Source: Candidatus Omnitrophota bacterium
GTDB lineage: Bacteria; Omnitrophota; Gorgyraeia; Zapsychrales; Fredricksoniimonadaceae
Length of the DNA: 64,000 nt
Direction: 5' to 3'
NCBI GenBank assembly: GCA_903908245.1
Contig: CAIVRE010000017.1
Location: 133 to 64,132 of the forward strand
Shown here: piece after piece, positions 5,969 to 63,769 of the stretch
How the letters are laid out: each line of letters opens with the position of its first letter
Numbering within the stretch: the first letter of the stretch is position 1
Program-made: the position numbers and the translations under genes
The notes under the pieces: model-generated
Seen by the model: only the letters and a program-made list of their open reading frames with translations
Told to the model about the DNA's origin: nothing
The model's database searches: none

Positions 5969-5981
5969 GCCCAGGGGCATA

Positions 5982-6620: not shown

Positions 6621-7096
6621 AAAAGATGATCGATCGTAATCCATGGACTTTGTTTTGGCTGACAGGAATTTTGACGGCTTTTATATTTTTCCGTGTGTCC
6701 GAAGGCTTTGCCGCCACGACACAGAAACCGGGAGTTGTCGGAGCGATAGAGCAGGCGATCCATGCCTTGATCGATCCTTTTAAGACAAAAGTAAAAGCAC
6801 CGGAACCGGTACCGGAACCTACGCCGCCGCCTGCGCCGCCTACGCCGCCTCCACCGCCTCCGCCGCCGCCGCCGCCGCCGGTAGTAGATCCGCCCAAATT
6901 GGCCCTGACCGGCATTATTTACAATGCGGCGCGCCCCATGGCGCTATTGAACGGAGAGGTAGTGGAACAAGGGCAAACGATCACCATCCACGAGGGGGAT
7001 GTCGCGGTCACGAAAATAAACAAAAACAATATCCAGGTCCAGTATAAAAATACAGACTTCGTCATTGCTATTACAGATACAACCCGGGGGGAATGA
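6617..7096 (+). CDS. pilP: type IV pilus assembly lipoprotein-like PilP with Pro-rich linker
   Basis: 159 aa with an N-terminal signal/TM segment, a (P/T/A)-rich linker including P12, and a C-terminal beta domain (LTGIIYN...ALLNGEVVEQGQTI) typical of PilP. Its stop overlaps the pilQ start. Confidence 0.7.
   Translation: MKKMIDRNPWTLFWLTGILTAFIFFRVSEGFAATTQKPGVVGAIEQAIHALIDPFKTKVKAPEPVPEPTPPPAPPTPPPPPPPPPPPPVVDPPKLALTGIIYNAARPMALLNGEVVEQGQTITIHEGDVAVTKINKNNIQVQYKNTDFVIAITDTTRGE
6860..6880 (+). repeat. (CCG)7 perfect trinucleotide tract inside pilP linker, flanked by degenerate GCC/CCG units (~6820-6885)
   Basis: Directly visible as ccgccgccgccgccgccgccg in frame, encoding Pro7. Confidence 0.9.
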
Positions 7097-8589
7097 TGAT
7101 CAACTTGCGTATGATGCCGTTCTTTTTTCTTTCTTTTGTAATGCTCTCCGGGCCTGTAATGGCAAGCCAGGAAGGAACGTCCGGCTTTGTACTTCCTCAA
7201 TATTCCCAGAAACTTTCTCTGGATTTCAAGAGTGCCGACCTGAAAGATGTCCTTAAGGCGCTTTCAAAACAGATCGGGGCGAACTTTATTCTCAATAAGG
7301 ATGTGGCCCCTGATATCAAGATCACTGTTTATCTGGAAAATGTCCCGGTAGAAGAATCCCTGAACCAGGTCCTATTGGCCAATGATCTTATTTATGAGTA
7401 CAATGAATCAATGAATCTCTTTATTGTAAAAACAAAACCGGTGGCGCTAGAGACGACCATTACCCGGATATTCGCGTTGAGGTATGCTTCCGTCGATTCC
7501 TCGAAAATGAAGACCACTGTGGCCGCCGGATCCGGAGCCGCAGCTCCAGCTGCTTCCGGCGGAGGTTCGCTCACCGCAGCGATCTCTTCTGTATTGACCA
7601 AGAATGGCAAGGTCGTTGATGATACCCGCACGAACAGCCTTGTTATCACCGATGTTGAAACAAATTTTCCAGCGATCGAACGGATGATCGCCAGGCTTGA
7701 TATCCCGGTCCGCCAGGTGGTCATTGAAATGGAAATGCTGGATGTTTCCACCAGCGTCCTGGATAAACTTGGTTCCAATATTAATTTGAATGCCCATATT
7801 AACAATGAGACCAAGGGGAGTGTTTTCCCCTGGAGGACCAACCGGGTTACAGAGCTGAATTTAACGCAAACCAATACTTTTTCTTCCGGGACTCTGAATT
7901 TTGCCAACTCCATGCTGGTGCTGGATTTCTTAAAACAACAGTCCTCAACAAGGACTTTGGCACGCCCGCGCATCGTTACACCGGACAATGAGACCGCGAC
8001 GATCCAGATCACAACGAATGAAGTAATAGGCGGTAAAAAGACTGATGCAACAAGCACTTCTGCTGCCACTGTAGCCCTTGAGCGTTATGAGACAGGCGTT
8101 TCTTTAACCGTTACACCGCAGGTCAACGCATTGACAAATGAGATATTATTGTCTATTGCCCCCAAAGTTATAGATGCCGGGACTATACAGACCATTATGA
8201 TTGATGGCACCTCCACTGAATATAAAAACCCGGAGGAGCGCAGTGTTAATATCACGGTACGAGTGGAGAATGGAAAGACCGCCGTCATCGGAGGATTATT
8301 GCGCTACCAGGACAACAGTGTTAATTCCAGTGTCCCGATATTAAGCAAGATCCCCTTGATCGGATTCTTTTTTAAACATAAAGTGGTAAACAAAGCCGAT
8401 CGCGAACTGGTCGTTTTTCTCACCCCGCGCGTTCTTGATCCGAATCAGCCGATTTCGGTGGATCCCAACAATAAATTTGCTCGTCCAAAAAGCTTGCGTG
8501 AACAACTGGCGCCGGATCGGGAGCAAACCGCCCCGGATATCCGCTCGGGCCTTATTGATCGCGAAATGGACAAGCTCAACGGGTTTTAA
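7093..8589 (+). CDS. pilQ: type IV pilus secretin PilQ (compact, no AMIN domains)
   Basis: 498 aa with a signal peptide. The C-terminal secretin signature is VPILSKIPLIGFFFKHKVVNKADRELVVFLTPRVL. Confidence 0.85.
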   Translation: MMINLRMMPFFFLSFVMLSGPVMASQEGTSGFVLPQYSQKLSLDFKSADLKDVLKALSKQIGANFILNKDVAPDIKITVYLENVPVEESLNQVLLANDLIYEYNESMNLFIVKTKPVALETTITRIFALRYASVDSSKMKTTVAAGSGAAAPAASGGGSLTAAISSVLTKNGKVVDDTRTNSLVITDVETNFPAIERMIARLDIPVRQVVIEMEMLDVSTSVLDKLGSNINLNAHINNETKGSVFPWRTNRVTELNLTQTNTFSSGTLNFANSMLVLDFLKQQSSTRTLARPRIVTPDNETATIQITTNEVIGGKKTDATSTSAATVALERYETGVSLTVTPQVNALTNEILLSIAPKVIDAGTIQTIMIDGTSTEYKNPEERSVNITVRVENGKTAVIGGLLRYQDNSVNSSVPILSKIPLIGFFFKHKVVNKADRELVVFLTPRVLDPNQPISVDPNNKFARPKSLREQLAPDREQTAPDIRSGLIDREMDKLNGF

Positions 8590-8599
8590 AAGGATAACT

Positions 8600-10336
8600 A
8601 TGGCACGTCTTCGTTTGGGCGAAAGATTGATCAAGCAGGGGCTTATCACCGAAGCGCAGCTGCAGGAAGCGCTCGAAGAACAGAAAACAGAGAAGATCCA
8701 TATTGGCGAGATCCTTGTCAATAAAGGGATACTGAAAGAGGAAGACCTGGCCGCGGCCATTGCCTCCCAGTTGCTTATTCCGTATGCTTCGCGCGCGTCA
8801 GGAATGCTTAACCCGCAACGCCAGCAGAGCCTTGAAAAACTTATTCCTTATGAATTCGCCAAGGAGCATTTGGTCCTTCCGCTGAACCGCAACATGAATT
8901 CGCTGACCTGCGGGATCTTCAATCCTTTCGACCTGATCATGATCGACAATTTGAAGAAGATCACCAATTGCGAGATCAATTTCGTTATTGCCACCAAGAG
9001 CGACCTGCTTAAGACCATCCTTGAGTTCTACGGCAACGTGGCCGGAGACTCAAAGGCCGGCGGAAGCGTGCTTTGGGGCGAAGCGCTGCAACGTTCCCGG
9101 GATATATCGCCGGCGAGCAGCGCGGCGGTATCCACCGATGATGCCACCGAGTCAGAGCTTAGCCTGGACAAAGTCATCGCAAGGGCCGAAGAGGCTCCGG
9201 TCATCAAGCTGGTGGACCTGATCATCCGCCAGGCCATTGATGAACGGGCGAGCGATATCCATATCGAACCTTTCAAGGACAAAGTTGAGGTGCGCTATCG
9301 TATCGACGGAGAGTTGTATCAGATCCCACCGCCGGCGAAACATTTACACCTGCCGATCGTGTCCCGCATCAAGATCCTAGCCAAACTGGATATCGCCGAG
9401 AAACGTCTGCCGCAAGACGGGCGTATTTCCGCAAAACTGGAAGACCGCACGGTTGACCTGCGCGTATCATCCCTGCCTACGGTTTGGGGTGAAAAGATCG
9501 TCATGCGTATCCTGGACAGCGAGGCGATCAAATTGGACCTGGTAACGCTTGGTTTTGAGCCAAGCCAGCTCGAGATCATCCGCAAAGCGCTTAAAGTGCC
9601 CTACGGGCTCCTTTTTGTCACAGGGCCGACAGGCAGCGGAAAATCCACCACTCTTTATTCGGCTTTGACCGAAGTGCTCGACCCCACCAAAAACATCATG
9701 ACGGCCGAAGACCCGGTCGAATTCCGTATTGAAGGGGTCAATCAGGTCCATGTAAGGCCTGATATTGGGTTCTCTTTTGCCGAGGCTCTGCGCGCTTTCC
9801 TGCGCCAGGACCCTGATATCATCATGGTAGGTGAAGTGCGTGACCTCGAGACTGCCCAGATCTGTACACGAGCGGCCCTGACCGGGCATTTTGTGCTGAG
9901 TACACTGCATACGAATGACGCGGCATCGGCCATAACACGTTTGCTGGATATCGGGGTCCCCAGTTATCTTTTAACACCGTCCCTGACGATGATCATCGCT
10001 CAGCGGCTCGGGCGCAAGCTTTGCCCTCATTGCAAAGAGCCTTATGAGCCCAAACCAGAGGAACTCGGGGAGATCAAGCTCAAGGCCGACCTTATTTACA
10101 GGGCCAAAGGTTGCGACAAATGTGCGCATACGGGGTATAAAGGCCGGATGGTCGTTGCGGAGGTCCTTTTGATCGACGAAGAACTCCGTCGCCTGATCGG
10201 CAAGAATGCCGGTTACAGCGACCTGAAAGATGCCGCCCGCAAGAACGGGATGATGACTCTTTTTGAAGCAGGCATACGGAAAGTTGAAGCAGGCATCACC
10301 AGCCTTGAAGAGATATTTGGTGTGACCGCGGGATAA
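8600..10336 (+). CDS. pilB: type IV pilus assembly ATPase PilB (GspE family)
   Basis: The start ATG at 8600 is preceded by AAGGA. The protein has a T2SSE_N-like N-terminus, Walker A GPTGSGKSTT, Asp and His boxes, and a tetracysteine motif CPHC...CDKC. The ORF-track extension to 8435 is rejected. Confidence 0.9.
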   Translation: MARLRLGERLIKQGLITEAQLQEALEEQKTEKIHIGEILVNKGILKEEDLAAAIASQLLIPYASRASGMLNPQRQQSLEKLIPYEFAKEHLVLPLNRNMNSLTCGIFNPFDLIMIDNLKKITNCEINFVIATKSDLLKTILEFYGNVAGDSKAGGSVLWGEALQRSRDISPASSAAVSTDDATESELSLDKVIARAEEAPVIKLVDLIIRQAIDERASDIHIEPFKDKVEVRYRIDGELYQIPPPAKHLHLPIVSRIKILAKLDIAEKRLPQDGRISAKLEDRTVDLRVSSLPTVWGEKIVMRILDSEAIKLDLVTLGFEPSQLEIIRKALKVPYGLLFVTGPTGSGKSTTLYSALTEVLDPTKNIMTAEDPVEFRIEGVNQVHVRPDIGFSFAEALRAFLRQDPDIIMVGEVRDLETAQICTRAALTGHFVLSTLHTNDAASAITRLLDIGVPSYLLTPSLTMIIAQRLGRKLCPHCKEPYEPKPEELGEIKLKADLIYRAKGCDKCAHTGYKGRMVVAEVLLIDEELRRLIGKNAGYSDLKDAARKNGMMTLFEAGIRKVEAGITSLEEIFGVTAG

Positions 10337-10339
10337 TCC

Positions 10340-11572
10340 ATGCCAAAATTCCTTGTTACATTTAAAGATGAATCAGGAAAAAGCAAGACCACGGTGTTGG
10401 ACGCGAAGGACAGCAATGACGCTGTTTCAAGCGTACAGACCCAGGGAGTCTTTGTTGTTGCCATTCAACCGCTGGAGGAAGCGCAAAAAAATGCCCAATC
10501 TTCCTCCAAAAAGGCCGCGCAGCGGAATTATACGCATAACAAGGCCAAACTGCAGGACATTGTTGTTTTTGCCCGTCAATTAGCCACCATGCTCGAAGCG
10601 GGTGTTCCTCTTTTAAGAAGCCTTACCGTTATCCTCGACCAGCTTGAAAGCCGTGAACTTTCCATGGTTGTTGCCGAGGTGCGCAGTGATGTGGAACAGG
10701 GGATGGCCTTCAGCAAAGCCCTGGACAAACACCCCAAGGTCTTCGGTCAGTTCTGGGTGAGCCTCGTCGAGGTCGGAGAAGCGTCGGGGACAATGCCCCG
10801 CGTCCTGAAGAAACTGACGGAATACGCGGAAGAGAGCGTCAAGTTCCAGTCGCAGTTGATCGGGGCGTTGATCTATCCGGCGGTGCTGACAGTGATCGTT
10901 TTCCTGGCGGTCCTAGCGTTCGCTTTGTTCATCGGGCCTATCTTCGAGAAGGTCTTCAAGAACCTGAACATGAGTTTGCCCGGCATTACCATCATGATGA
11001 TGGCGCTGTTCAAATTCATTCAGACGCAGTTCCTTCTCATCGTTGCCGCGATCACCGGGATGGTCTTCGCTTTCAAGGCGTATGTCAAAACGTCCGTCGG
11101 CCGCTGGCAAACAGAAATGTTCCTTTACAATCTTCCTACGGTCGGGAATATTTTCCGGCTTGTTGTTGTTGAGAAATTCACCTCCCAGATGGCTATCCTT
11201 ATTGAAAGCGGTGTGCCGATCCTTTACGCCCTGGAAATATCAGAGCGTCTCGTCGATAATATGGTCTGCGGCGCAGTATTAAAGGATGTGCGCAACGCCG
11301 TGCGGGAAGGAAAGCTCCTGGCCGACGCCCTGGAAAAAAGTTCTTTTTTCCCGTCGATCTCGGTTCAGATGATCCGCGTGGGGGAAGAGACGGGCGAATT
11401 GTCCAAAATGCTCGGCCATGTGGCCGTTTTTTACAAAGGGCAGGTGGAGGACTTCATGAGGAATATTTCCGTCCTCATTGAACCCGTCATGCTGGTGGTT
11501 ATGGGTGGTGTCATCGGGACCATGGTCATTGCAATGTTCCTGCCGCTTTTGTCGATCTCTACTGGCGGATAA
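10340..11572 (+). CDS. pilC: type IV pilus platform protein PilC (GspF family)
   Basis: 410 aa with two GspF repeats and three TM segments. It lies immediately downstream of pilB. Confidence 0.85.
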   Translation: MPKFLVTFKDESGKSKTTVLDAKDSNDAVSSVQTQGVFVVAIQPLEEAQKNAQSSSKKAAQRNYTHNKAKLQDIVVFARQLATMLEAGVPLLRSLTVILDQLESRELSMVVAEVRSDVEQGMAFSKALDKHPKVFGQFWVSLVEVGEASGTMPRVLKKLTEYAEESVKFQSQLIGALIYPAVLTVIVFLAVLAFALFIGPIFEKVFKNLNMSLPGITIMMMALFKFIQTQFLLIVAAITGMVFAFKAYVKTSVGRWQTEMFLYNLPTVGNIFRLVVVEKFTSQMAILIESGVPILYALEISERLVDNMVCGAVLKDVRNAVREGKLLADALEKSSFFPSISVQMIRVGEETGELSKMLGHVAVFYKGQVEDFMRNISVLIEPVMLVVMGGVIGTMVIAMFLPLLSISTGG

Positions 11573-14510: not shown

Positions 14511-15260
14511 ATGCACCGTTTTTATTGCGCCGCCCTTTTACAACAACAGGAACCGCTTGTTATTGATGACCCCGATGAGGTTCATCATATAGCGCGGGTC
14601 CTTCGTTTGCGCCCTGGGGACGCAGTGGAGCTGATCAATGGCCAAGGGGCTTTGGGTGCAGCCCGGATCATTGGTATTTCAAAACAGCACATTCAAGTGG
14701 AATTATTGGAAGAGGTCCGGTCTTTTTTACCTTCCCCGGTAAAGATCATTCTGGCCTGTGCTTTACCCAAACGGTCAAAGTTCGAAGATATCATTGAAAA
14801 ATGCACACAACTCGGCGTTGATGAAATAGTCCCTCTTGTCACAAAACGTACCGAGATCGTCCCTTCCAAAGAGGCTGTCTTGCGCATGGGAATACGATTC
14901 AACAAAGTGGCTCTGAGCGCCTCCAAGCAATGCCAGCGATTATGGTTCCCGGTAGTATACCCCGCCATGGCGCTGGAGACAGCGGTGGACCTGTTCGCGA
15001 AAGAAAGCAATGCATTATATTTCCCCTGGCTTGAAGGCAAGCGAACATTATTAAAAGAGGCTTTGGACCGTCGTGAACCCCGGCCGGGAGCCGTTGTTTT
15101 CTTCATTGGGCCTGAAGGCGACTTTTCTCCGGAGGAAGCAGATTACACGATACGTAAAGGCGCTGTCCCTGTTTCATTGGGCGAGACCGTGCTGAGGGTC
15201 GAGACCGCCGCGGTCGCCGTGATATCCTATGCGCATTTTATTATTGGAGGATCGGATTGA
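14511..15260 (+). CDS. rsmE: 16S rRNA (uracil1498-N3)-methyltransferase RsmE
   Basis: 249 aa with the RsmE N-terminal PUA-like region and a C-terminal SPOUT domain (FFIGPEGDFSPEE). Confidence 0.85.
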   Translation: MHRFYCAALLQQQEPLVIDDPDEVHHIARVLRLRPGDAVELINGQGALGAARIIGISKQHIQVELLEEVRSFLPSPVKIILACALPKRSKFEDIIEKCTQLGVDEIVPLVTKRTEIVPSKEAVLRMGIRFNKVALSASKQCQRLWFPVVYPAMALETAVDLFAKESNALYFPWLEGKRTLLKEALDRREPRPGAVVFFIGPEGDFSPEEADYTIRKGAVPVSLGETVLRVETAAVAVISYAHFIIGGSD

Positions 15261-17188
15261 AGTGGCCGATGCCCTTTTCATCGTCTTTTAAGAAAGCTGG
15301 AGCTGTTTCGGCCTTGCTGATAGCCGCTATTCTTGTTTATTCTCCAGTCTTCAAAGCAGACTACATCAATTGGGATGATCCCTCTCATGTGCAGGAGAAC
15401 CCGTTTATTGTTAACGGGGACCGTTCGTTCTTATCCAGGGTGTTCCTAAAAGAGGAAACAGCGAACAGGACGTATATCCCGTTAACGGCGGTATCGTTCT
15501 GCCTGGAAAAACAGTTCTTCGGGTTAACCTCTTTCAGTTCCCATCTGATCAATTTGACCCTGCATCTTTGTAATATCGTTCTTATCCTTCTTTTGGGGCT
15601 ACAATTTGGCTTGACTTTTATGGCAGCGTACATCGCGGCCGCTCTTTTTGCGTTCCATCCGATGCATGTCGAGTCGGTCGCCTGGGTGACAGAACGCAAG
15701 GATGTTTTATACAGCTTCTTTTATCTTCTCTCCTTGGTCTTTTATTGCCGTTTTCAGGATACCCGCCGGGGAAGCTTTTATATCGGCGCGCTGGGAATGG
15801 CGATCCTTAGCCTGTTGTCCAAGCCAATGGCGTTAAGTCTGCCGTTGATCATGTTCCTGGTCGATTATATCAGGTCCAGGCCTTTGACCCGGAGGTCCTT
15901 GCTGGAAAAAGCCCCGTTCGCTGCATCGGCCTTCATGGTCGCAGGGATCACGTATCTGATGAATACCCGTGTTGTCGGGTTTTCATTCCCCTCATCATTC
16001 CTGGTCTGGGACTGGACGTTCTTCTTTTATTTAAAGAAGTTCTTTGTCCCGGTCGATCTGTTGGCTTTGTATGATGTTGCAACACCGGTCAATATCCACA
16101 ATCCCGAATATTGGATGGCGGCACTCGGGATATTCGTGATGATCCTGATGCTGTTCAGGAACAGAAGATCCCGCTGGTTTGTTTTTGCTGTTGGATCTTA
16201 TACGGCGTCAATATTCTTTCTCTGTCGATTTGACATCCTTGACCCGACTCTCGTGGCAGATCGTTTCATGTATCTTCCAAGCGCGGGGATATGTTTCCTG
16301 ATCGGATTTTATTTTGACAAGATGCTGCGTGAGCCGCGATCATTGATCAGGGCGGCCGCTGTATTCTTCATCCCGCTATTATTCGCCGGATTAATGCTCG
16401 GCACATGCCAGCAGGTGAAATATTGGCGGAATTCCTGGACATTCTGGAGCCACATCCTGGAATTCAGGCCACGCCTGTATTTCGCACAATATATGCGCGC
16501 CCAGTCACTCTCCGACGAAAAAGCTTACAGGAAGATCGCGCCTTACTTTGAACAACTTGTTTATTGTCAGTTGCCATCCGTCCCGACGACCCCATTCCAG
16601 AAGTCGCTGGTGCAGGGCAAACTAAAATATTTCAGGTCTTTGTTCGCTTTGCGCTGGTATCATCATGAATTATCCCGTCCGCTCTGGAGAAAAAGCCGTT
16701 TTCAGGAGATCCCGCTTGTTTCCACTTATTCGGGGTATATCAATGAACTGCTTTTTATAGGGAATTATAATAAGGCCCTGGCGTTCACTTTAAAGAAGAT
16801 CGCCAAATTCCCGGCCAAGACACATGATTTTATTATAATGGGACGATGCTATACCAATCTGGGGCTTTATGCCAAGGCCTTTGAATCCTTATCCATGGCC
16901 ATCGAATCTGATCCCAATAACTATGAGGCATTCCTGGCACGAGGGGCCGTAGCGGTCCTGCTGGGGGATATTGGAAGAGCCATCGACGACAGTAAGCGGT
17001 TATTGATCCTGGATCCCAAAGCCATGAGCGGCTATGACCTTTTGTTCAATGTTTATGTGACGGCGAATCAGCTGGAAGAAGCGAAGAAAGTGCTCGACCA
17101 GGAAATGGTTTTGTGGCCTTATGACCCCCAGGTGTCCCGGCATTACAGTACCTATACAAGGGCAGTCCATTCGAGGGATATCCCGTGA
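15257..17188 (+). CDS. TMTC-like GT-C membrane protein (DUF1736-type motif) with C-terminal TPR repeats
   Basis: 643 aa with about 10 TM helices. The conserved loop motif is FHPMHVESVAWVTERKDVLYSFFYLL. The C-terminal ~200 aa are TPR. Its start overlaps the rsmE stop. Confidence 0.7.
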   Translation: MKWPMPFSSSFKKAGAVSALLIAAILVYSPVFKADYINWDDPSHVQENPFIVNGDRSFLSRVFLKEETANRTYIPLTAVSFCLEKQFFGLTSFSSHLINLTLHLCNIVLILLLGLQFGLTFMAAYIAAALFAFHPMHVESVAWVTERKDVLYSFFYLLSLVFYCRFQDTRRGSFYIGALGMAILSLLSKPMALSLPLIMFLVDYIRSRPLTRRSLLEKAPFAASAFMVAGITYLMNTRVVGFSFPSSFLVWDWTFFFYLKKFFVPVDLLALYDVATPVNIHNPEYWMAALGIFVMILMLFRNRRSRWFVFAVGSYTASIFFLCRFDILDPTLVADRFMYLPSAGICFLIGFYFDKMLREPRSLIRAAAVFFIPLLFAGLMLGTCQQVKYWRNSWTFWSHILEFRPRLYFAQYMRAQSLSDEKAYRKIAPYFEQLVYCQLPSVPTTPFQKSLVQGKLKYFRSLFALRWYHHELSRPLWRKSRFQEIPLVSTYSGYINELLFIGNYNKALAFTLKKIAKFPAKTHDFIIMGRCYTNLGLYAKAFESLSMAIESDPNNYEAFLARGAVAVLLGDIGRAIDDSKRLLILDPKAMSGYDLLFNVYVTANQLEEAKKVLDQEMVLWPYDPQVSRHYSTYTRAVHSRDIP

Positions 17189-30254: not shown

Positions 30255-30506
30255 ATGGAAGTTAAGATCAGAATGCAGAAGGCCGGCGATCCCGCCCAGA
30301 AAAATCACAATTGGCGTATTGTGGTCATCCCCAAGAGCTATCCGCGCGACGGGCGTGTGCTTGAGATCATCGGGTATTATGACCCGTCCAAGAAACCTGC
30401 GGTTTACAAGATCGATACCGCCAAGGCCGACACCTGGATCAAGAAGGGTGCGACCATGACGGATACTGTCCGTTCGCTTTACAACAAGACAAAAAAAGCC
30501 AAGTAA
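30255..30506 (+). CDS. rpsP: 30S ribosomal protein S16
   Basis: 83 aa. MEVKIRMQKAG...WRIVV...RDGR.LE.IG.YDP is typical of S16. Confidence 0.9.
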   Translation: MEVKIRMQKAGDPAQKNHNWRIVVIPKSYPRDGRVLEIIGYYDPSKKPAVYKIDTAKADTWIKKGATMTDTVRSLYNKTKKAK

Positions 30507-30562: not shown

Positions 30563-30856
30563 ATGGAGCTGATCATGCAACCGCAACAGTCGAATATGTT
30601 CATCCAACTTGTTCCGATGGTGCTTATTTTCGGGATCTTCTATTTCCTGGTGATCCGCCCTGAAAAGCAGAAACAAAAGAACCACCAGGAATTATTAAAA
30701 AACCTGCGCAAGAATGACGAAGTCCTGACTTCTGCCGGCATCCACGGGATCGTGGTCAATGTGAAGGACAAAACCGTTGTCCTCAGGCTCGACGAGAATG
30801 TGCGCGTGGAATTTGAAAAAGAAGCGGTCACATCCGTTATTAAAAAAGGCGAATAA
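30563..30856 (+). CDS. yajC: preprotein translocase subunit YajC
   Basis: 97 aa with a single TM helix, followed by the motif L..L.KGD.V.T.GG..G.V. Confidence 0.85.
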   Translation: MELIMQPQQSNMFIQLVPMVLIFGIFYFLVIRPEKQKQKNHQELLKNLRKNDEVLTSAGIHGIVVNVKDKTVVLRLDENVRVEFEKEAVTSVIKKGE

Positions 30857-30872
30857 CTAATAAGGATCTCTC

Positions 30873-33083
30873 ATGTCTAAAGCATTGCTTAACAGATTCT
30901 ATTTGATCATTGGTGTTATCGCGGCCTGTTTATTCTTCGCGTTGCCGCTCGAGAAACGCATTAACCTTGGGCTGGACTTGCGCGGGGGTATGCACCTTAT
31001 CATGAAGGTGGATACATCCAAATTGTCCGAAAATGCGAAATCGGATGCTGTGGTGCGGGCGATGGAGATCCTTCGCAATCGTATCGACTCCCTTGGGGTC
31101 GGTGAAACCGTTGTCCAGCGCCAGGGAGAAGACCAGATCCTGGTCCAGTTGCCCGGTGTGACCGACCGTGACAAAGCGGTCGACATGGTTAAACGCGTCG
31201 CCCATTTGGAGTTCAGGGTCGTCAAAGAAGACCCTGTTCTTTTTAAAGAAGCGATGGCCGGCAAGCCGGTTGAGGGTTACGAGATCAAATATGTGAAAGG
31301 CGCCAAGGCGGAGCCTCTGCTTCTGGAAGCCAATGCCTCCATGCAGGGCGACTCCATATCGGATGCCAAGGTTGATTTTGACCAAAGTTCATTCTATCCC
31401 AAGATCTCCCTGACATTCAACAGCCAGGGGGCCAAGGATTTTGCCGAACTGACACAAAAGCATGTCGGAGAACGTTTGGCGATCGTGATGGACGGGGAGG
31501 TCCTGTCCGCCCCTAATATTCGCGAAGCGATCCTGACAGGGACCGCGGAGATCACCGGGCAATTCAACGATGCGGAATCATCAATGCTCGCGCTTGCACT
31601 TCGTTCAGGTTCTTTGCCTGTGCCGATGTCGATCGAGGAAGAACGCACGATCGGCCCGCTGTTAGGCAAAGATTCCATAGACTCCGGGATCAAGGCGATG
31701 GTCATCGGAATGGCGGCGGTCTTTGTATTCATGATCTTTTATTATTTTATCGGCGGGATCATTGCGTCAATGGGGCTTTTCTTGAACCTCTTGATCACCA
31801 TCGGGACCATGGGTTTTATCAATGTCATGATGCCCGGGTCTCAAGTAACCATGACATTACCAGGTATCGCAGGTCTGGCGCTTACACTTGGTATGGCGGT
31901 CGATGCCAACGTGCTTATTAATGAACGTATCCGCGAAGAAGTTGACAATGGCAAGGCGCTTGTATCGGCGATCAATACCGGTTATGACCGTGCCTTTTCA
32001 GCTATCTTCGACTCCCATGTCACATCCCTTATTGCTTCGTTCATGTTGTTCCAGTTCGGTTCAGGCCCGATCAAGGGTTTTGCGATCACGCTTTCCATCG
32101 GTCTTTTGGCGAGTTTGTTCACGACGGTTTATGTCACTCGCACGGCATTCCTTTTCCTTATTGAACAGAACTGGATCAAATCCCTGCGGATGCAGCATTG
32201 GATCAAAGCGCCCAAGATCGACTTTCTCAAGGCGGCGCCGATCTTTATTGTCTTTTCACTGGTTATCAGCGTTGTCGGATTGGGAAGTATTGTCATGAAA
32301 AAGAACCAGGCCTATGGCATCGATTTCTCCGGAGGACAGGTGCAGCAGTACCGCTTTGCCAAGCCGGTCTCTGCGGAAAGCGTCCGCAAGGTCATAAAAG
32401 ACGGCGGGGTTACGGACGCCATCATCCAGCAGTTTGATAAGAACCCGGAGAACGTCCTTATCCGGACTTCGGAAGATACTTACGAAAAAGTCCAGGCCGC
32501 ATTCAAGGCGGAATTCAAGGATAACAAGTTCGAAACTTTAAGGATCGAGAAAGTCGGCCCGGTGGTAGGAAAACACCTGCGCCAACAGGCGATTTGGGCG
32601 CTTCTCCTGGCCCTTGGTGGTATCTTGATCTATCTGGGTTTCAGGTTCAAACATTACGATTTTGCGTTTGCGGGCGTTGTTGCCCTCTTGCATGATGTCA
32701 TTATTGCCATGGGGCTTACCGTATTTTTTGGCCGGCAGATCGACCTTTTAATGATCACGGCGCTGTTGACCGTGGCAGGTTATTCGATCAATGATACGAT
32801 CGTTATATACGATCGTGTCCGTGAGAATTTCAACAAGACCGGCCGAAAGGGAACTCTGGCTGAAGTCATCAACCTGAGTATCAATCAAACCCTCGGGCGT
32901 ACGTTACTGACCACCTTCGTGACCATGCTGGTCGTCTTCGCGCTCTTTTTCCTGGGGGGCGAGGTGCTCAACACGTTCTCACTGACGTTATTGATCGGGT
33001 TCACAGCGGGGATCTATTCCACGATCATGGTGGTTTCCCCCATAGTTGTATGGTCGCAAAAGTTCACCAAAAAATCATGGTGA
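30873..33083 (+). CDS. secDF: protein translocase subunit SecDF (fused)
   Basis: 736 aa. The SecD periplasmic domain plus 6 TM segments is followed by the SecF half. Confidence 0.9.
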   Translation: MSKALLNRFYLIIGVIAACLFFALPLEKRINLGLDLRGGMHLIMKVDTSKLSENAKSDAVVRAMEILRNRIDSLGVGETVVQRQGEDQILVQLPGVTDRDKAVDMVKRVAHLEFRVVKEDPVLFKEAMAGKPVEGYEIKYVKGAKAEPLLLEANASMQGDSISDAKVDFDQSSFYPKISLTFNSQGAKDFAELTQKHVGERLAIVMDGEVLSAPNIREAILTGTAEITGQFNDAESSMLALALRSGSLPVPMSIEEERTIGPLLGKDSIDSGIKAMVIGMAAVFVFMIFYYFIGGIIASMGLFLNLLITIGTMGFINVMMPGSQVTMTLPGIAGLALTLGMAVDANVLINERIREEVDNGKALVSAINTGYDRAFSAIFDSHVTSLIASFMLFQFGSGPIKGFAITLSIGLLASLFTTVYVTRTAFLFLIEQNWIKSLRMQHWIKAPKIDFLKAAPIFIVFSLVISVVGLGSIVMKKNQAYGIDFSGGQVQQYRFAKPVSAESVRKVIKDGGVTDAIIQQFDKNPENVLIRTSEDTYEKVQAAFKAEFKDNKFETLRIEKVGPVVGKHLRQQAIWALLLALGGILIYLGFRFKHYDFAFAGVVALLHDVIIAMGLTVFFGRQIDLLMITALLTVAGYSINDTIVIYDRVRENFNKTGRKGTLAEVINLSINQTLGRTLLTTFVTMLVVFALFFLGGEVLNTFSLTLLIGFTAGIYSTIMVVSPIVVWSQKFTKKSW

Positions 33084-33246: not shown

Positions 33247-34947
33247 ATGTCTATCCGTTCTAAGAAAAAGATATCTATTCCCATCGCGAAGCCTGTAGTT
33301 GAGAAAAAGAATGAACTCTTGGCTCGACTATCAAGGTGGGGGCTTTTTATTTTATTCGCACTGGGGCTCGCTTTGCGTCTTTATCATCTGAACCGGAATG
33401 TTTTTTATTTCTACGATGAAGGGATGTATTTGAACAGTGGGCGTATTCTTCTTAATCCTCTTATCGGTAATCCGTCGCAGGGTTTGGGGACAATCCTTTC
33501 CAATATCCAGCATTGGTTTTCTTTGGCGACCCAAACCGACAGACCCTTGTGGCAGCTCATGGTTGATTCCCGGATCTTATTGGGTGCAACACAGGAATAT
33601 TGGTGTGTTCGGGGTATATCGTTCGTGATGGGACTTGGGGCTCTGGTCGTGCTTTACCACTTTTCCTGGCGACTTTTCAGCTCCAGATCGACAGCGATTT
33701 TAAGCGTCTTGTTTTTGCTCTTTCTTCCGAGCCACCTCTTTTATTCAAGATCCGGACTCCCGGAAGCCGCCACGACATTTTTCGTTATTTCGGGTTTCTA
33801 TTTTTATTGCTTCCCTCGGTCACTCGGGCCAAGGACATTCCTGGCCGGGCTCTTTTTCACATGTGCTTTCTTTACGAATTATCGCCTGCTTATATTGCCA
33901 ATCTTAACGTTTGCAGGAGAGTTCCTTTTAAGTAAGGCCGAAGAACGCTCTCTTGATCTCAAGAAATGGGGATGGACCGTTGCCATCTTCGGAGTGTTTA
34001 TTCTTCTAGCATGTTTGAACAATCGCGGTGAGTATTTTATTGTAACATCCGGCTGGATGTGGCATCAGGTCGGACTTGCTGTCAACCATTTCGCGTGGGG
34101 CAATATCTTTACTTATCCATATGGCCTCTTCCGTCTGGAAAGCTGGGCATTTGGCCTTCTCTTTTCCGGCGGAATATACTTCGTCTGGAAAAAAGACTGG
34201 CTTAAGGCATTCCCTTTTATCCTTGTTTGTTTCTGGATGACGATGTTCTCTTTTTCTTCGGACAAAGCGCTAAGGTACATGTCAGCCGTACTGCCTTTTA
34301 TGGCCTTAAGCGCTGCTGTCGCTGCGGTGGCAGTGCTTGAATCGGGAACACGCAAGTTCTTTCGTCAAATCGTTATTGTCCTGGTGATCATTGCCATCGG
34401 GACAATGGCGTTTAAATCGTTCCAGCTGGTCATTAATCAATCGCATCATAAGCGGCTGCATCAATATTTAACGAATCTGGACCCGAAAGCGAAGATCGTT
34501 TCAACACAGCCGATGATCCTTGGCCTTGATTACGACGATATTCATCAAATCATCTCTTGCCCTGGAATTAAAGAACCTTCATTCCTGGAATTGCCGGAGA
34601 ACGGATTTAACTATTTGGTACTTGGGCCACAGGCATATGTTTCCTGGACCGCAAGCGGTATCAGCTTTGATGGCGAATTAGGAGGGTTTCTCCGGTTCTT
34701 TGATAAGAAGGTAAGGCCATTAAACGTTTTCCCACATATGAACAAAACAATGCTGGAGCGTTTTGTTTTTGAGCATAATCAAAACTTGATGAGCTCCATT
34801 ACTTTTCTTGAGAAAGCCACTGATCATGCCGGTGAGCGCCGTGTTTATGATATCCAGCAAGGATTGGAACTGCTGGAAAAGGCGACTCATTTAGCCGAAG
34901 AAATGCAAAGCGTGAAAAAAATTAGAACTTCCGCTGCGAACCGGTAG
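33247..34947 (+). CDS. GT-C family glycosyltransferase (GT39/PMT-like) membrane protein
   Basis: 566 aa with about 11 TM helices. A YFYDEGMY loop-1 DE motif follows the first TM helix, and there is a C-terminal soluble domain. Confidence 0.6.
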   Translation: MSIRSKKKISIPIAKPVVEKKNELLARLSRWGLFILFALGLALRLYHLNRNVFYFYDEGMYLNSGRILLNPLIGNPSQGLGTILSNIQHWFSLATQTDRPLWQLMVDSRILLGATQEYWCVRGISFVMGLGALVVLYHFSWRLFSSRSTAILSVLFLLFLPSHLFYSRSGLPEAATTFFVISGFYFYCFPRSLGPRTFLAGLFFTCAFFTNYRLLILPILTFAGEFLLSKAEERSLDLKKWGWTVAIFGVFILLACLNNRGEYFIVTSGWMWHQVGLAVNHFAWGNIFTYPYGLFRLESWAFGLLFSGGIYFVWKKDWLKAFPFILVCFWMTMFSFSSDKALRYMSAVLPFMALSAAVAAVAVLESGTRKFFRQIVIVLVIIAIGTMAFKSFQLVINQSHHKRLHQYLTNLDPKAKIVSTQPMILGLDYDDIHQIISCPGIKEPSFLELPENGFNYLVLGPQAYVSWTASGISFDGELGGFLRFFDKKVRPLNVFPHMNKTMLERFVFEHNQNLMSSITFLEKATDHAGERRVYDIQQGLELLEKATHLAEEMQSVKKIRTSAANR

Positions 34948-34954
34948 ATCTATA

Positions 34955-36943
34955 TTGGCCAGACGAATACAATTCTCTTCCGGATCAGGCGAAGTTCGCT
35001 TTTGTTCACATTTTATGTTTTATTCTTTAAAATACTTCGTTAGCCAGACCTTATCATTTGAGACCATCCAGGCGGATATCGCCGGGTTCGGTTATGAACG
35101 GGAGAAGTCTGCGTGCGAAGAGGGCCGTTATACGGTCCGCGGCAGCATCATCGATATATTCCCTGTCAATTTCGATTCTCCCATCCGCATCGACCTTGAA
35201 GACGACAAGGTGCGCGCCATTTATTCATTCAATCTGACGACGGGAAAGAACATTTGGGAACATAAAGCTGTCATCATCCTTCCGGCGCGTAAACGGACGG
35301 AAAAGGGCGAAGGCGGATTCCGATCCGAAATGCCGCTCAATAATTTTGTTGATATCGAGCGGGGAGATTATGTCGTGCACAATATGCATGGCATCGGGAA
35401 ATATCTGGGAGTTAAAGAATTTGATATCGATCTCGGGAAGGTCGAACATTTTGTCATTGAGTACCAGGGAGGAGACAAGCTCTATGTGCCTAAAAGGGAC
35501 TTGCACCTGGTCCAGAAATATGTAGGTTTTAGCAAAAAACCTCCAAGATTGTTCAAACTGGGCAGCCGTGAATGGGAAAAAGTCCGCCGCATGATCGAAA
35601 AACGCATCCAGCGCCTGGCGGCAGAACTCCTGCATGTTCAGGCGTTGCGCGAAAGCCTGCGCGGGCATCCATTTTGCGCAGACGTCCCGTGGCAAACGGA
35701 TTTTGAAAAAACCTTTCCTTTCATTGAAACTCCGGACCAGCTTAAGGCGACTTTGGAGGTCAAAGCGGACATGGAGCGGGATCGCCCGATGGACCGGCTT
35801 TTGTGCGGAGATGTGGGCTACGGCAAGACCGAAGTTGCAATGCGTGCGGCTTTTAAAGCTGTAATGGACGGGAAACAAGTGGCTGTATTGGTCCCGACCA
35901 CTGTCCTTGCGGAACAACATTACTATAATTTTTCAAAGCGCATGAACAATTTCCCGGTCAGGATCGGCATGGTGAGCCGGTTCCGCAGCAAAGCGGAACA
36001 ATTGGCCATTGTCAAAGAAGCTGTCGAAGGCAAGATCGATATCCTGATCGGGACGCACCGCCTTCTTTCCAAGGATGTCTCATTCAAGGACCTTGGCCTG
36101 ATCATCATCGACGAAGAACAGCGTTTTGGGGTGCAGGCCAAAGAACGCCTGAAACACATGAAAATGCTGGCAGATGTCCTGACCCTGACGGCAACACCCA
36201 TCCCGCGGACACTTTATATGGCTCTGGCCGGCTCCCGCGACATGTCGGTCATTACAACGCCTCCGCAAAACCGTATTCCCGTTTCAACACATATGATCGA
36301 TTTTAACGAAGAGATCATCAATGATGCCATCCGTAAAGAACTGGCCCGCGGCGGACAGGTTTTCTTTTTGCACAATCATATTGAAGACATCACACCCGTA
36401 GCCGGGATCATTACACGCCTTGTCCCCAAAGCCCGCCTGGCAGTAGGCCATGGCCAAATGCCGGGAAAAGAACTGGAAAGCATCATGCTCAAGTTTCTTA
36501 AGGGTGAGATTGATGTTTTAGTGTGTACCACTATAATAGAATCGGGTATCGACATCCCGAACGCAAATACGCTGATCGTGAACCGGGCGGAACGTTTTGG
36601 CCTTTCGGACCTTCATCAGCTCAGGGGCCGGGTAGGTCGAATGGATGTGAAAGCATTCGCCTATTTTATTGTCCCGGACAAGTTGTTGTTGTCAACGGTG
36701 GCCAAACGCCGGTTGAAGGCACTTGAAAAATTCGCTGACCTCGGCGCGGGATTCAATATCGCTTTTGAAGATCTTCAGATCCGGGGAGCCGGGAACTTGC
36801 TGGGAGAACAGCAACACGGGTATATATCCAGTATCGGGTTCGACCTGTATTGCCGGCTCCTTAAAGAGTCAGTGGAAAATATAAAAAAAGAAGCTCTTTT
36901 ATCCAAAAAAGGGAGAACCGATGAGATCGCGAAATATCCTTAG
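34955..36943 (+). CDS. mfd: transcription-repair coupling factor Mfd, unusually short form
   Basis: 662 aa. A UvrB-homology D2-like segment (GYEREK...RGSIIDIFP) is joined directly to the RNAP-interacting CarD/TRCF domain (RGDYVVHNMHGIGKYLGV). SF2 helicase motifs follow (GDVGYGKTEVAMRAAF, DEEQRFG, QLRGRVGR), then the TRG motif, and the protein ends about 25 aa later. Confidence 0.8.
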   Translation: MARRIQFSSGSGEVRFCSHFMFYSLKYFVSQTLSFETIQADIAGFGYEREKSACEEGRYTVRGSIIDIFPVNFDSPIRIDLEDDKVRAIYSFNLTTGKNIWEHKAVIILPARKRTEKGEGGFRSEMPLNNFVDIERGDYVVHNMHGIGKYLGVKEFDIDLGKVEHFVIEYQGGDKLYVPKRDLHLVQKYVGFSKKPPRLFKLGSREWEKVRRMIEKRIQRLAAELLHVQALRESLRGHPFCADVPWQTDFEKTFPFIETPDQLKATLEVKADMERDRPMDRLLCGDVGYGKTEVAMRAAFKAVMDGKQVAVLVPTTVLAEQHYYNFSKRMNNFPVRIGMVSRFRSKAEQLAIVKEAVEGKIDILIGTHRLLSKDVSFKDLGLIIIDEEQRFGVQAKERLKHMKMLADVLTLTATPIPRTLYMALAGSRDMSVITTPPQNRIPVSTHMIDFNEEIINDAIRKELARGGQVFFLHNHIEDITPVAGIITRLVPKARLAVGHGQMPGKELESIMLKFLKGEIDVLVCTTIIESGIDIPNANTLIVNRAERFGLSDLHQLRGRVGRMDVKAFAYFIVPDKLLLSTVAKRRLKALEKFADLGAGFNIAFEDLQIRGAGNLLGEQQHGYISSIGFDLYCRLLKESVENIKKEALLSKKGRTDEIAKYP

Positions 36944-37859
36944 TATCATTATCCTGGGCATTATTTTTATGGCCCCGGCAATCCCGGCATACGCGATCGA
37001 TGACGCCATTCTTGCGGTCGTCAATGACGAGGTCATTACGGTCAAGGACCTGAAGGAATACATGAAGAGCGTTTTCGCCCAGCTCAAGATCGAGGGGCGT
37101 TCGCCACAGGAGATCAACGAGGTCATGTCCCAGTACGAAAATAAAGGGATCGAGCAGCTTATTGAGGACCGTCTCATCCTTTCAGCCGCCGAGAAAGCGG
37201 GCGTTATGATCCGTCCAAAAGCGGTCGATGACCGGCTTGAGGAGATCAAAAAGAAATACCCGTCCTATCAGGAATTCTTGGAATCGATCAAGAACGAGGG
37301 GTTGACCATTACCGATATCCGTAAAAAGATCGAGTCCCAGATCAAGGGGCAGGCGATGGTGAGCACGGAGGTCCGTTCCAAGGTCTATGTCAATCCGCAG
37401 GAAGTGACCGATTATTTTGCGCTACATGCACAGGAGTATTCCAAGAAAGCCCGGGTTTACGTTGAGACCATATTCGTGAAATCCGCTTTCGGGAAAGATG
37501 AGGCCAGAAAAAAGATCGATGACGCGCTTGCTGCAGTCCGAAACGGCCTGGATTTCAGGGCAGCTATCGGAAAATATTCCGAACTCCCATCTGTCGGCGA
37601 GATCGCACTCGACCAGCTGCGACCCGAGTTCAAGGAACGGATCGATAAAATGAACGTCGGCGATTTCTCGGAAGTCATTGAAGTGCCCAATGGGTTTTAT
37701 CTGATCAAGCTCGAAGGGCGCGCCGAAGCCTCAAACGCCCTTCTCAATGAAGTCAAAGACCGTATTTATCAGGATATTTTTGAGAACAAGTTCCGTGAAC
37801 GGTTCAAGTCCTGGATCGAAAACCTTCGTAAAAAAGCTTATGTTGAAGTCAAACAATAG
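36921..37859 (+). CDS. SurA-like periplasmic chaperone / parvulin-type peptidyl-prolyl isomerase
   Basis: 312 aa with a signal peptide, a SurA_N-like domain and a PpiC rotamase domain (FSEVIEVPNGFYLIKLEGR). Confidence 0.75.
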   Translation: MRSRNILSIIILGIIFMAPAIPAYAIDDAILAVVNDEVITVKDLKEYMKSVFAQLKIEGRSPQEINEVMSQYENKGIEQLIEDRLILSAAEKAGVMIRPKAVDDRLEEIKKKYPSYQEFLESIKNEGLTITDIRKKIESQIKGQAMVSTEVRSKVYVNPQEVTDYFALHAQEYSKKARVYVETIFVKSAFGKDEARKKIDDALAAVRNGLDFRAAIGKYSELPSVGEIALDQLRPEFKERIDKMNVGDFSEVIEVPNGFYLIKLEGRAEASNALLNEVKDRIYQDIFENKFRERFKSWIENLRKKAYVEVKQ

Positions 37860-62086: not shown

Positions 62087-63769
62087 TCATTGCCCGGGCA
62101 AGGACTTTCTGGCTTCATTGATCATGTCTTTGGCGTGTTTAACCGACACGTCCGTCATTTTATCACCGCTCATCATATGGGCCAGTTCATTAACACGATC
62201 TTTTGGCTCCAGCGGCGCGACAACCGTCCTGGTCCTGCCTTTATCAACAGCCTTGGTGATCCGAAAATGAGTGTCCGCGAAAGCGGCGATCTGTGGCAGA
62301 TGGGTGATAAGGATCACCTGGCGGTGACCGGAGATCTCTTTCAGTTTTGTCCCTATCACCGTCCCGAGCCGCCCGCCGATCTGGGCGTCAACTTCATCAA
62401 AAATAAGGACCGGAACAGGGTCCACCTTCATTAAAGCGCGTTTGATCGCCAGCATCAACCGGGCGGCTTCACCGGAAGAGACAATATCCGCCAAAGGTTT
62501 TAACTCTTCGCCGGTATTCGTACTGATGAAGAAGACGACCTTATCCGCGCCTGACGGGGAGAGAGGGGCTTTTTCAATACGGGCTTCGAATGAAATGCTT
62601 TTGAACGCGAGCTCCCGAAGCTCTTTTTCGATCGTTGTCTTAAGCGACTCCGCGGTCTTCTTTCTGTGCTGCGTTATTATTTTGGCCAGTTTATTCAGTG
62701 CGTCTTCTTTTACCTTAAGTTCAGCTTTCAGATCATCTTCATTCTGCTCGAAATCATTAAGCAGGGCAAATTTTATCTTGGCGTCACCATAAAACTTTCT
62801 GGCATCTTCCAACGTCGGCCCGTATTTACGTTTGATGTCAATATAAGCATCGTAACGGTTATTCACCGACTGGGCAAAACCGGGGTCGAAGCTGAGGGAG
62901 TCGGCATAATTGCGCAGATCGCTTATTAAAGAACCGGCACTCTCCTGCAAAGTCGAAAGGCTGTCAAGATAAGCAGTCGCTTTCTCGTCGATATCCGAAA
63001 GATGCTGCAAAGGTTTAAAAGCCCTGGATAATAAAGACTCCAGGCTCACTTCATCGTTCTCCAGGATAGCCATTGCCTGGGTGATATGCGTATAAAGCTT
63101 TTCCGAATTGTTGATCTTGACCCTGTCCTGTTCGATCTCGGCGAGGTCGTCTTCCGTGAGAGGGGCCTGTTCCAATTCCTTGATCTGATGGGCCAGAAGG
63201 CCGGTATCCCGCTCACGGGACTGCGCCAGTTCCTGCAAAGCCGACAGCTTGTTCCTGATCGATGAATATTGCGCAAAAACGACAGAATATTCTTTAAAAT
63301 GATCATTGGCCCCGGTAAGGGCATCAATAATAAGCAAATGCTGATCTTCCGCGAGCAGCTGTTGATGGTCATTAGGCCCGTGAAAATCGATCAGGCGGTC
63401 TCCGATATCCTTAAGTTGCGCAATACTGGCGGTAAGGCCGTTGAGCCTGGCTTTATTACGGCCGTCAGCGGTAACGGACCTCTGGATAATAAGAGAATTA
63501 TCGTCGTTCTTAAAGGTTTCCCAGTTGGGAAGTGTTTTCAGAAAAGAAGGTTTTAACAAGAAAACAGCCTCTACAGTACAAGCATCAGCGCCGGCGCGAA
63601 GGTGGCTAGACTGGAAACGCTCCCCAAGGGCAAAGCGCAGGGCATCGATCAGGATCGACTTGCCGGCGCCGGTTTCACCGGTGAGGGTGTTAAGCCCAGG
63701 GGTGAATTCCATGGACGTTTGTTCAATAATACCGAAATTCTTGATGGTCAGGCTTTCGATCATGGGCAT
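62087..63769 (-). CDS. recN: DNA repair protein RecN
   Basis: 560 aa. The N-terminal Walker A is GETGAGKSIL, the middle is a coiled coil, and the C-terminal signature/Walker B is LIFDEVDAQIGGR. The true start is probably Met3 at 63763 (MIESLTIKNFGII). Confidence 0.9.
   Translation of the reverse strand: MPMIESLTIKNFGIIEQTSMEFTPGLNTLTGETGAGKSILIDALRFALGERFQSSHLRAGADACTVEAVFLLKPSFLKTLPNWETFKNDDNSLIIQRSVTADGRNKARLNGLTASIAQLKDIGDRLIDFHGPNDHQQLLAEDQHLLIIDALTGANDHFKEYSVVFAQYSSIRNKLSALQELAQSRERDTGLLAHQIKELEQAPLTEDDLAEIEQDRVKINNSEKLYTHITQAMAILENDEVSLESLLSRAFKPLQHLSDIDEKATAYLDSLSTLQESAGSLISDLRNYADSLSFDPGFAQSVNNRYDAYIDIKRKYGPTLEDARKFYGDAKIKFALLNDFEQNEDDLKAELKVKEDALNKLAKIITQHRKKTAESLKTTIEKELRELAFKSISFEARIEKAPLSPSGADKVVFFISTNTGEELKPLADIVSSGEAARLMLAIKRALMKVDPVPVLIFDEVDAQIGGRLGTVIGTKLKEISGHRQVILITHLPQIAAFADTHFRITKAVDKGRTRTVVAPLEPKDRVNELAHMMSGDKMTDVSVKHAKDMINEARKSLPGQ

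Follow-up and report, generated by a model that had tools for sequence, protein, structure and literature searches.

A 64,000-nucleotide (nt) stretch of a Candidatus Omnitrophota genome (assembly GCA_903908245.1, contig CAIVRE010000017.1; this whole stretch is referred to below as the window) encodes a short form of Mfd, or transcription-repair coupling factor (TRCF). In bacteria, Mfd is the motor that removes RNA polymerase stalled at DNA damage and recruits repair enzymes. The window protein is about half the usual size; compared with canonical Mfd, three separate segments have almost certainly been deleted, namely D1a, D1b together with D3, and D7 (~515 amino acids (aa) in all). What is retained comprises the D2 domain, the RNA polymerase (RNAP)-interacting domain (RID), and the translocase motor with its TRG motif and hook helices, which are the modules found to be sufficient when the E. 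coli protein was dissected, while the parts that gate them are all gone. The preferred reading, to which a probability of roughly 0.6 is assigned, is that of an Mfd that naturally has no clamp and whose UvrA-binding D2 is unmasked, which by analogy with engineered E. coli MfdΔD7 would be derepressed yet repair-coupling and would represent a lineage-specific minimal architecture. Taken separately, derepression of the short Mfd is likely and its coupling to UvrA probable on the same analogy.

The Short mfd Gene and the Identity of Its Product

The + strand contains an uninterrupted open reading frame (ORF) at 34955..36943 that encodes 662 aa from a TTG codon. The mfd gene most likely starts at ATG 35015, which would give a protein of 642 aa, because the family consensus N-terminus "MFxSLK" corresponds to M21 of the ORF and the gene calls of independent assemblies use the same start. 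The residues preceding this motif are unconserved or missing in relatives, and a 100% identical database protein (P0001, 642 aa) also begins at M21. Residue numbers refer to the 642-aa form unless the 662-aa ORF is named. The upstream gene ends at 34947, and the gap to the mfd ATG is 67 nt; the 8-nt gap given in the original prediction is the distance to the TTG codon and had to be abandoned, although the point attached to it, that no room is left for the missing domains, still stands. On the downstream side, a surA-like gene begins at ATG 36921 behind a good ribosome-binding site (GGGAG), so that its first 23 nt are shared with the end of mfd. A scan for promoters and terminators gave counts not above those in shuffled sequence, and a 231-aa antisense ORF (35225..35920) was provisionally taken as a by-product of the mfd coding frame.

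The 642-aa protein is a near-certain Mfd (TRCF) orthologue. The hallmarks first read from the sequence (a UvrB-like segment, the RID, a superfamily 2 (SF2) motor, and the TRG motif) were borne out by Pfam, by the TIGR00580 model, and by the alignment with E. coli Mfd. The whole protein passes the NCBIfam equivalog TIGR00580 "mfd" with 872.5 bits against a cutoff of 800, and scores below the cutoff of the E. coli-type model NF007966 (666 versus 1329). In the 662-aa ORF, Pfam recognizes UvrB_inter (aa 29–112, 6.7e-18), CarD_TRCF_RID (PF02559; aa 136–190, 2.5e-15), DEAD (aa 279–420, 6e-24), and Helicase_C (aa 458–563, 4.7e-21). The TRCF/D7 family PF03461 has no match in this ORF or in the short-form proteins P0121 and P0138, while the canonical P0122 has one. 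A phmmer search against the PDB aligned aa 15–117 of the ORF with residues 116–221 of E. coli Mfd and aa 121–645 with residues 464–988 in collinear order (E=1e-180). With blastp, E. coli Mfd (translated from NC_000913.3) was aligned at residues 134–216, that is, D2, with aa 11–93 (29% identity), and at residues 471–987, from the RID to the hook helices, with aa 108–624 (51% identity). An alignment in two such pieces, together with the missing PF03461 match, confirms the original view that the N-terminus is short and D7 is missing.

An AlphaFold 2 (AF2) model based on 117 sequences reached a predicted local distance difference test (pLDDT) score of 85.5 and a predicted template modeling (pTM) score of 0.75; the pLDDT was 64 with 59 close relatives only, and rose to 85.5 with the 117-sequence alignment, which includes a divergent subgroup. 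In the model, a confident D2 (residues 1–90) is joined by a low-confidence linker (91–105) to the RID; the relay helix that follows is 29 residues long and is succeeded by a pair of RecA-like domains, and the terminal helices extend to residue 639. Its best Foldseek matches in the PDB are the Mfd structures 6ac8 and 2eyq, with E values of ~1e-61 to 1e-63. The residues for catalysis and translocation are all kept: K271, the DEEQ motif, R539/R542, R566/R590/Q600, and W187, the last of which is found in 117/117 short-family sequences and corresponds to the relay-helix residue W550, whose role in E. coli Mfd has been described (PMC3488230). The protein ends ~42 aa past Q600, the last TRG residue, and not ~25 aa after TRG as had been estimated, and the hook helices lie within this tail, so that D7 alone is absent from the C-terminal part. 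The C-terminus is located 18 aa past the equivalent of E. coli residue 987, and the E. coli alignment stops at 987–993. The features of the gene and its surroundings are listed in Table 1.

Table 1. Coordinates of the short mfd gene, the parts of its product, and the neighboring genes; identity is the mean pairwise identity within the short family.
Feature	Position	Strand	Identity	Remarks
mfd, short form	35015..36943	+		642 aa from ATG 35015; maximal ORF from TTG 34955, 662 aa
D2, UvrB-interaction-type (UvrA-binding)	35039..35290	+	0.39	aa 9–92, equivalent to E. coli Mfd ~134–216; AF2 pLDDT ~90
Linker in place of D1b, D3, and D3–RID linker	35291..35335	+	0.24	aa 93–107; AF2 pLDDT ~50
D4 / RID	35336..35569	+	0.49	aa 108–185; CarD_TRCF_RID; E. 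coli Mfd from 471 (471–548)
Relay helix	35570..35656	+		aa 186–214, helix in AF2 model; W187 equivalent to E. coli W550
D5 / translocase domain 1	35657..36274	+	0.70	aa 215–420; Walker A GKT (K271), motif II DEEQ 366–369
D6 / translocase domain 2	36275..36835	+	0.63	aa 421–607; motif VI R539/R542, TRG R566/R590/Q600
Terminal hook helix, unconserved tail, and stop	36836..36943	+	0.14 (tail)	aa 608–642; AF2 helix 609–639; no D7
Ribosomal protein S16-like ORF	30255..30506	+		just upstream of secDF
YajC-like ORF	30563..30856	+		just upstream of secDF
Fused secDF gene	30873..33083	+
566-aa membrane protein	33247..34947	+		no Pfam family; between secDF and mfd, not part of Mfd
surA-like periplasmic chaperone/PPIase	36921..37859	+		followed by pdxA, rsmA, thioesterase, and histidine kinase genes

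Deleted Domains

In a multiple alignment, the short form shows three clean gaps, and the same boundaries are found in two other short representatives (56% and 49% identity). In a comparison with 148 canonical Mfd cluster representatives, the canonical proteins contain a median of 136 additional aa before D2 (D1a), 236 between D2 and the RID (D1b and D3), and 143 after D6 (D7). The loss of D1a, D1b, D3, and D7 proposed in the original prediction is thereby confirmed, but D2, which had been counted with the lost parts, is kept whole: the retained N-terminal piece is a complete D2, and the RGSIIDIFP sequence, once placed at the end of the UvrB-like segment, lies in the middle of the domain. Of the complete UvrB-homology module (D1a–D2–D1b), D2 alone is present. 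Similarity to UvrB is limited to UvrB residues ~148–245, whereas canonical Veillonella Mfds match UvrB 37–245.

Two observations could have overturned this picture, namely divergent equivalents of D1a, D1b, D3, and D7, or a frameshifted continuation in the flanking DNA, and neither was found. The residual flanks amount to ~10 aa before D2, ~15 aa between D2 and the RID, and ~18 aa after the hook helices. In a tblastn search of the 64-kb window with 149 full-length canonical Mfds, matches within the gene occur in its own frame only (frame 0), and no significant similarity to D1a, D1b, D3, or D7 is present elsewhere in the window. An opposite-strand match within the gene (E=0.26) and a recurrent weak match outside it at 30623–30847 (best E=0.014), which involves a motor segment and lies inside yajC, were both attributed to chance. 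The flanks of 11 syntenic loci contain no D1/D3- or D7-like genes. Three canonical representatives seemingly without D7 or D1a (P0187, P0217, and P0223) are probably incomplete, and in P0187 the cut falls inside the TRCF domain. The lost domains are the least conserved ones in canonical Mfds (mean pairwise identity: D1a 0.24, D1b 0.18, D3 0.24, and D7 0.26), and Omnitrophota can apparently do without ~500 residues of scaffold and regulatory sequence.

Distribution and Origin of the Short Form

The same short form is found in all Omnitrophota relatives that were examined; ~240 relatives were surveyed in two deeply diverged groups (the best 120 of each), nearly all of them within 614–683 aa. The best 120 homologues of the window protein share 65–100% identity with it and are all 614–669 aa long; where their sources are named, nearly all are "transcription-repair coupling factor" entries of Candidatus Omnitrophica/Omnitrophota, with one from Elusimicrobia. 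Among 1.84 billion representatives clustered at 50% identity, 2 of the best 150 are short (P0121 with 642 aa and P0138 with 640 aa), and the remainder are 975–1283 aa long. A search from the divergent P0138 yielded a further 120 proteins of 627–683 aa and one of 527 aa, which is probably partial, and every named source is Omnitrophota save one labeled only "bacterium". In databases, the short form is labeled as TRCF or as DEAD/DEAH helicase.

In species-representative genomes, a collinear short gene is present at 13 loci, 10 of which come from Omnitrophota metagenome-assembled genomes (MAGs), and the next matches after these (Veillonella, Clostridium) are canonical. The other three loci (L003, L008, and L012) belong to MAGs labeled Ca. 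Elulimicrobium, "uncultured Planctomycetales", and Elusimicrobia; they contain the same secDF–mfd–surA–pdxA locus with 75–86% identity to the window, as do the Omnitrophota MAGs, and NCBI places Ca. Elulimicrobium in the Patescibacteria group. The taxon labels of these three loci are probably inconsistent. The gene order mfd–surA–pdxA–rsmA–(thioesterase)–histidine kinase is found in 11 of the 13 loci, and secDF precedes mfd wherever upstream sequence exists, with a gap of 87–150 nt in 8/9 such loci. Copies of the identical protein were found on 8 contigs from at least 4 assemblies, and one of these contigs is 327 kb long.

In a neighbor-joining tree of the motor core, the short forms are grouped with a bootstrap value of 45/100, and their two subgroups with values of 85 and 100. 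The motor-core identity between the two subgroups is 0.56, versus 0.55 to the canonical Mfds of other phyla, and either a very deep split exists within the phylum or there was more than one origin of the deletions. The main support for a single ancient origin is that the three deletion boundaries and the taxon are shared.

D2 and Coupling to UvrA

The D2 of the short family, with a mean pairwise identity of 0.39, is comparable in this respect to that of canonical Mfds (0.40) and exceeds the linker (0.24) and the tail (0.14) of the short forms. The residues considered to contact UvrA were taken from Manelyte et al. (2010; PMC3025350) alone, where R165, R181, and F185 of E. coli Mfd were required for UvrA binding and coupling, and isolated D2 has been crystallized with its UvrA partner (PDB 4DFC, which is among the PDB matches). 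Residues were counted in 117 short-family sequences and 149 canonical Mfds. The equivalent of R165 (R42) is arginine in 116/117 short Mfds, and that of R181 (R58) in 117/117. The equivalent of F185 (E62, at 35198..35200) is never aromatic in the short Mfds (D 43, E 31, H 16, Q 8, V 6, and R 4), while the canonical Mfds have F in 97, W in 10, and L in 7 of 149, with D or E in 18/149; the acidic residue at position 183 is kept in 71/117 short versus 145/149 canonical Mfds. Judged from these identities and counts, D2 is under constraint, with a partly remodeled surface. The changes at positions 185 and 183 could represent a compensation for the unmasked D2, or an altered partner surface. Since D2 is whole and conserved and keeps the R165 and R181 equivalents, coupling to UvrA is more likely to have been kept, in un-gated form, than to have been lost.

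None of uvrA, uvrB, and uvrC was found in the 64-kb window or in 28 loci; the uvrA and uvrB queries were the E. coli proteins, and their sole matches were to the UvrB-like part of Mfd. Two Omnitrophota KEGG orthology (KO) tables (Seymour et al. 2023, "KO counts per genome") each list uvrA, uvrB, uvrC, uvrD, recG, and recA, along with one mfd. One of the two genomes is a 94%-complete Omnitrophota MAG; the uvrABC data come from other Omnitrophota genomes, the present one being covered as far as the window reaches.

Alternative Explanations

It is scarcely credible that the protein falls outside Mfd and represents RecG-like or different SF2 helicases with a CarD-like domain by coincidence. RecG models do match the motor region strongly and RecG structures are matched at E=4e-79, but the best RecG-model score is 404 bits against a cutoff of 718, and every RecG model stays far under its cutoff while the Mfd equivalog passes. 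The N-terminus lacks a wedge domain and consists of D2 and the RID; D2 is of the Mfd type (E=6e-9 for the D2 chain 4dfc versus 1.7e-4 for UvrB D2), and RecG (K03655) is annotated separately in Omnitrophota genomes, so that the RecG-like identity is ruled out by domain content. Hardly any weight remains, either, for the short form as an artefact, whether from truncation in gene calling, from faulty assembly, or from pseudogene decay. Several of the genomes are metagenome-assembled, and the maximal ORF opens with a rare TTG 8 nt past the upstream stop, but the same length and boundaries recur in nearly all of the ~240 relative clusters, the identical protein lies on 8 contigs, the frame is intact, the catalytic motifs are invariant, the flanking genes abut both ends at all loci, and the window search gave no out-of-frame remnants; this explanation is effectively refuted. 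It is also improbable, if less so, that the gene has been split and that D1/D3- or D7-like proteins encoded elsewhere rebuild an autoinhibited Mfd in trans. The data span the 64-kb window and, for each relative, ~14 kb of surrounding sequence, which leaves some space for such genes, but neither the window nor the flanks of the 11 syntenic loci show any D1a, D1b, D3, or D7 similarity, the KO tables list one mfd per genome, and the low conservation of the lost domains (0.18–0.26) fits dispensability.

The alternative of greatest weight, though still unlikely, is that D2 no longer recruits UvrA and that the protein is a pure RNAP release or recycling translocase, acting in transcription–replication conflicts or at roadblocks or pauses, with D2 retained to serve some other purpose, for example in folding, in contacting DNA, or in binding another partner. 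The never-aromatic F185 position and the relaxed acidic residue at 183 point in this direction, as does the E. coli R165A/R181A/F185A variant, which still displaces RNAP but no longer binds UvrA or couples repair (PMC3025350), and repair-independent roles of Mfd are documented (PMC13453472). On the other hand, both arginines of the triad are near-invariant across the 117 sequences, the conservation of D2 equals that in canonical Mfds at a time when all other non-motor domains have been discarded, F185 is itself not universal in canonical Mfds, given the acidic residues in 18/149, and uvrABC and a single mfd co-occur in 2/2 readable KO-table genomes. The reading of a derepressed, repair-coupling Mfd is preferred, and several points weigh against it. 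The changes at positions 185 and 183 could mean that UvrA binding is weakened or lost. In vivo, E. coli D2 was tested only as part of an intact UvrB-homology module, and the position of D2 may change once D1a and D1b are gone. The relay-helix/hook-helix interface and kinetic discrimination remain, and "constitutively active", the term used in the original prediction, may be overstated. Finally, the monophyly of the short forms reaches the low bootstrap value given above on the motor core alone.

Proposed Mechanism

In E. coli Mfd, the motor is clamped by D1–D3 and by D7, which is packed against D2. The deletion of D7 or of the UvrB-homology module derepresses the ATPase and translocase activities and leaves RNAP displacement intact (PMC3488230, PMC3025350). 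MfdΔD7 is derepressed, binds UvrA constitutively, and supports strand-specific repair in vitro and in vivo, while the loss of the UvrB-homology module or mutation of the D2 triad abolishes coupling and spares RNAP displacement (PMC3025350). Cryo-electron microscopy of E. coli Mfd revealed a multi-step, ATP-consuming loading process in which first D7 and later DNA covers D2, and the authors argued that this staged occlusion of D2 prevents premature UvrA recruitment (Kang et al. 2021, PMC7864632).

In the short form, the D2:D7 clamp and the contacts between D1–D3 and the motor cannot exist, and the motor would therefore not be autoinhibited in the E. coli way. A constitutively active protein would be a reasonable expectation from the E. 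coli deletion mutants (PMC3025350, PMC3488230). In the proposed mechanism, the RID would bind the β-subunit of a stalled RNAP, and the un-clamped, RecG-like motor would translocate on the upstream duplex, pushing the polymerase forward or off. UvrA would be recruited by the permanently exposed D2 on its flexible tether of ~15 residues, without a gated unmasking step, and selectivity would be derived from the kinetic discrimination of stalled complexes and from the retained interface between the relay helix and the hook helices. It is conceivable, if rather doubtful, that transcription-coupled repair throughout Omnitrophota runs on such an un-gated, clamp-less Mfd, with D2 always exposed and the motor never autoinhibited, and with the remodeling of D2 perhaps lowering its affinity for UvrA as a countermeasure against sequestration. 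If this is true, multi-step loading and unmasking, together with D1, D3, and D7, would be an optional regulatory layer and not the core mechanism.

As a gene, the short mfd is ordinary, and its use would be that of a natural minimal TRCF, from a lineage that has lost every domain of clamp control while D2, the RID, and the motor are conserved, and in which the core parts of the protein would be separated from the regulatory ones. It raises the question of how UvrA sequestration and the off-target removal of RNAP are avoided without a clamp. With 642 aa and one flexible linker, the protein would lend itself readily to structural and single-molecule studies. Caution is called for in annotation, as the "transcription-repair coupling factor" labels in Omnitrophota conceal a different architecture.

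Comparison with Known Systems

In function, the closest analogues are the Thermus Mfd described below and engineered truncations of E. coli Mfd, for which Smith 2007 and Murphy 2009 are reportedly sources. MfdΔD7 and MfdΔBHM/ΔN, the latter lacking the UvrB-homology module (BHM), are clamp-less like the short form (Manelyte 2010, PMC3025350). The short form differs in being natural and conserved across a phylum, and in combining both truncations while sparing D2 alone; no D2-sparing double-truncation construct was found in the literature searched, and no description of the Omnitrophota short Mfd was found in the searchable literature.

Canonical Mfd (E. coli, 1148 aa; PDB 2EYQ and the 6X26 series) and the short form have in common the RID, the relay helix, translocase domains 1 and 2, the TRG motif, the hook helices, and a D2 of the Mfd type, including equivalents of R165 and R181, and the short form is apparently the only mfd of its genome. 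In contrast to the canonical protein, in which D2 is inserted in D1, the short form is without D1a, D1b, D3, and D7 and carries D2 alone on a linker of ~15 aa, and the staged unmasking of D2 (PMC7864632) is impossible. For Thermus thermophilus Mfd, a natural protein, a 2026 study that questions the universality of autoinhibition reports constitutive derepression and a clamp that is open or dynamic (PMC13453472). This protein keeps the whole UvrB-homology module and D7, and its derepression is dynamic, whereas that of the short form would be architectural.

RecG has a homologous SF2 motor with a TRG motif and a long helix before it, as in the short Mfd, but its wedge domain takes the place of D2 and the RID, and it targets branched DNA and not RNAP. 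Domain 2 of UvrB has the same fold as the D2 of the short Mfd (UvrB_inter) and, in characterized systems, binds the same UvrA surface; the short-Mfd D2 scores higher against Mfd D2 than against UvrB D2 (38 versus 23 bits) and is fused to an RNAP-directed motor.

Neighboring Genes in the Window

The 566-aa multi-pass protein encoded between secDF and mfd is found at this position in this genome only, with a gap of ~2 kb there in L008, and its gene looks like a lineage-specific insertion. Further away on the + strand, a cluster resembling type IV pilus or type II secretion systems, with a PilM-like gene, a secretin, and a T2SSE/MshEN ATPase, is located at 4358..11572, with a large TPR protein (114..2261) ahead of it. 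At 15257..18690 (+ strand), two large ORFs that lie side by side (643 and 501 aa) have no Pfam match at 1e-5 and lie within a stretch of strongly negative AT skew (16–20 kb). A RecN/SMC-type ATPase gene at 62087..63769 on the − strand is the sole other DNA-repair-related gene recognized among the scanned ORFs of the window.

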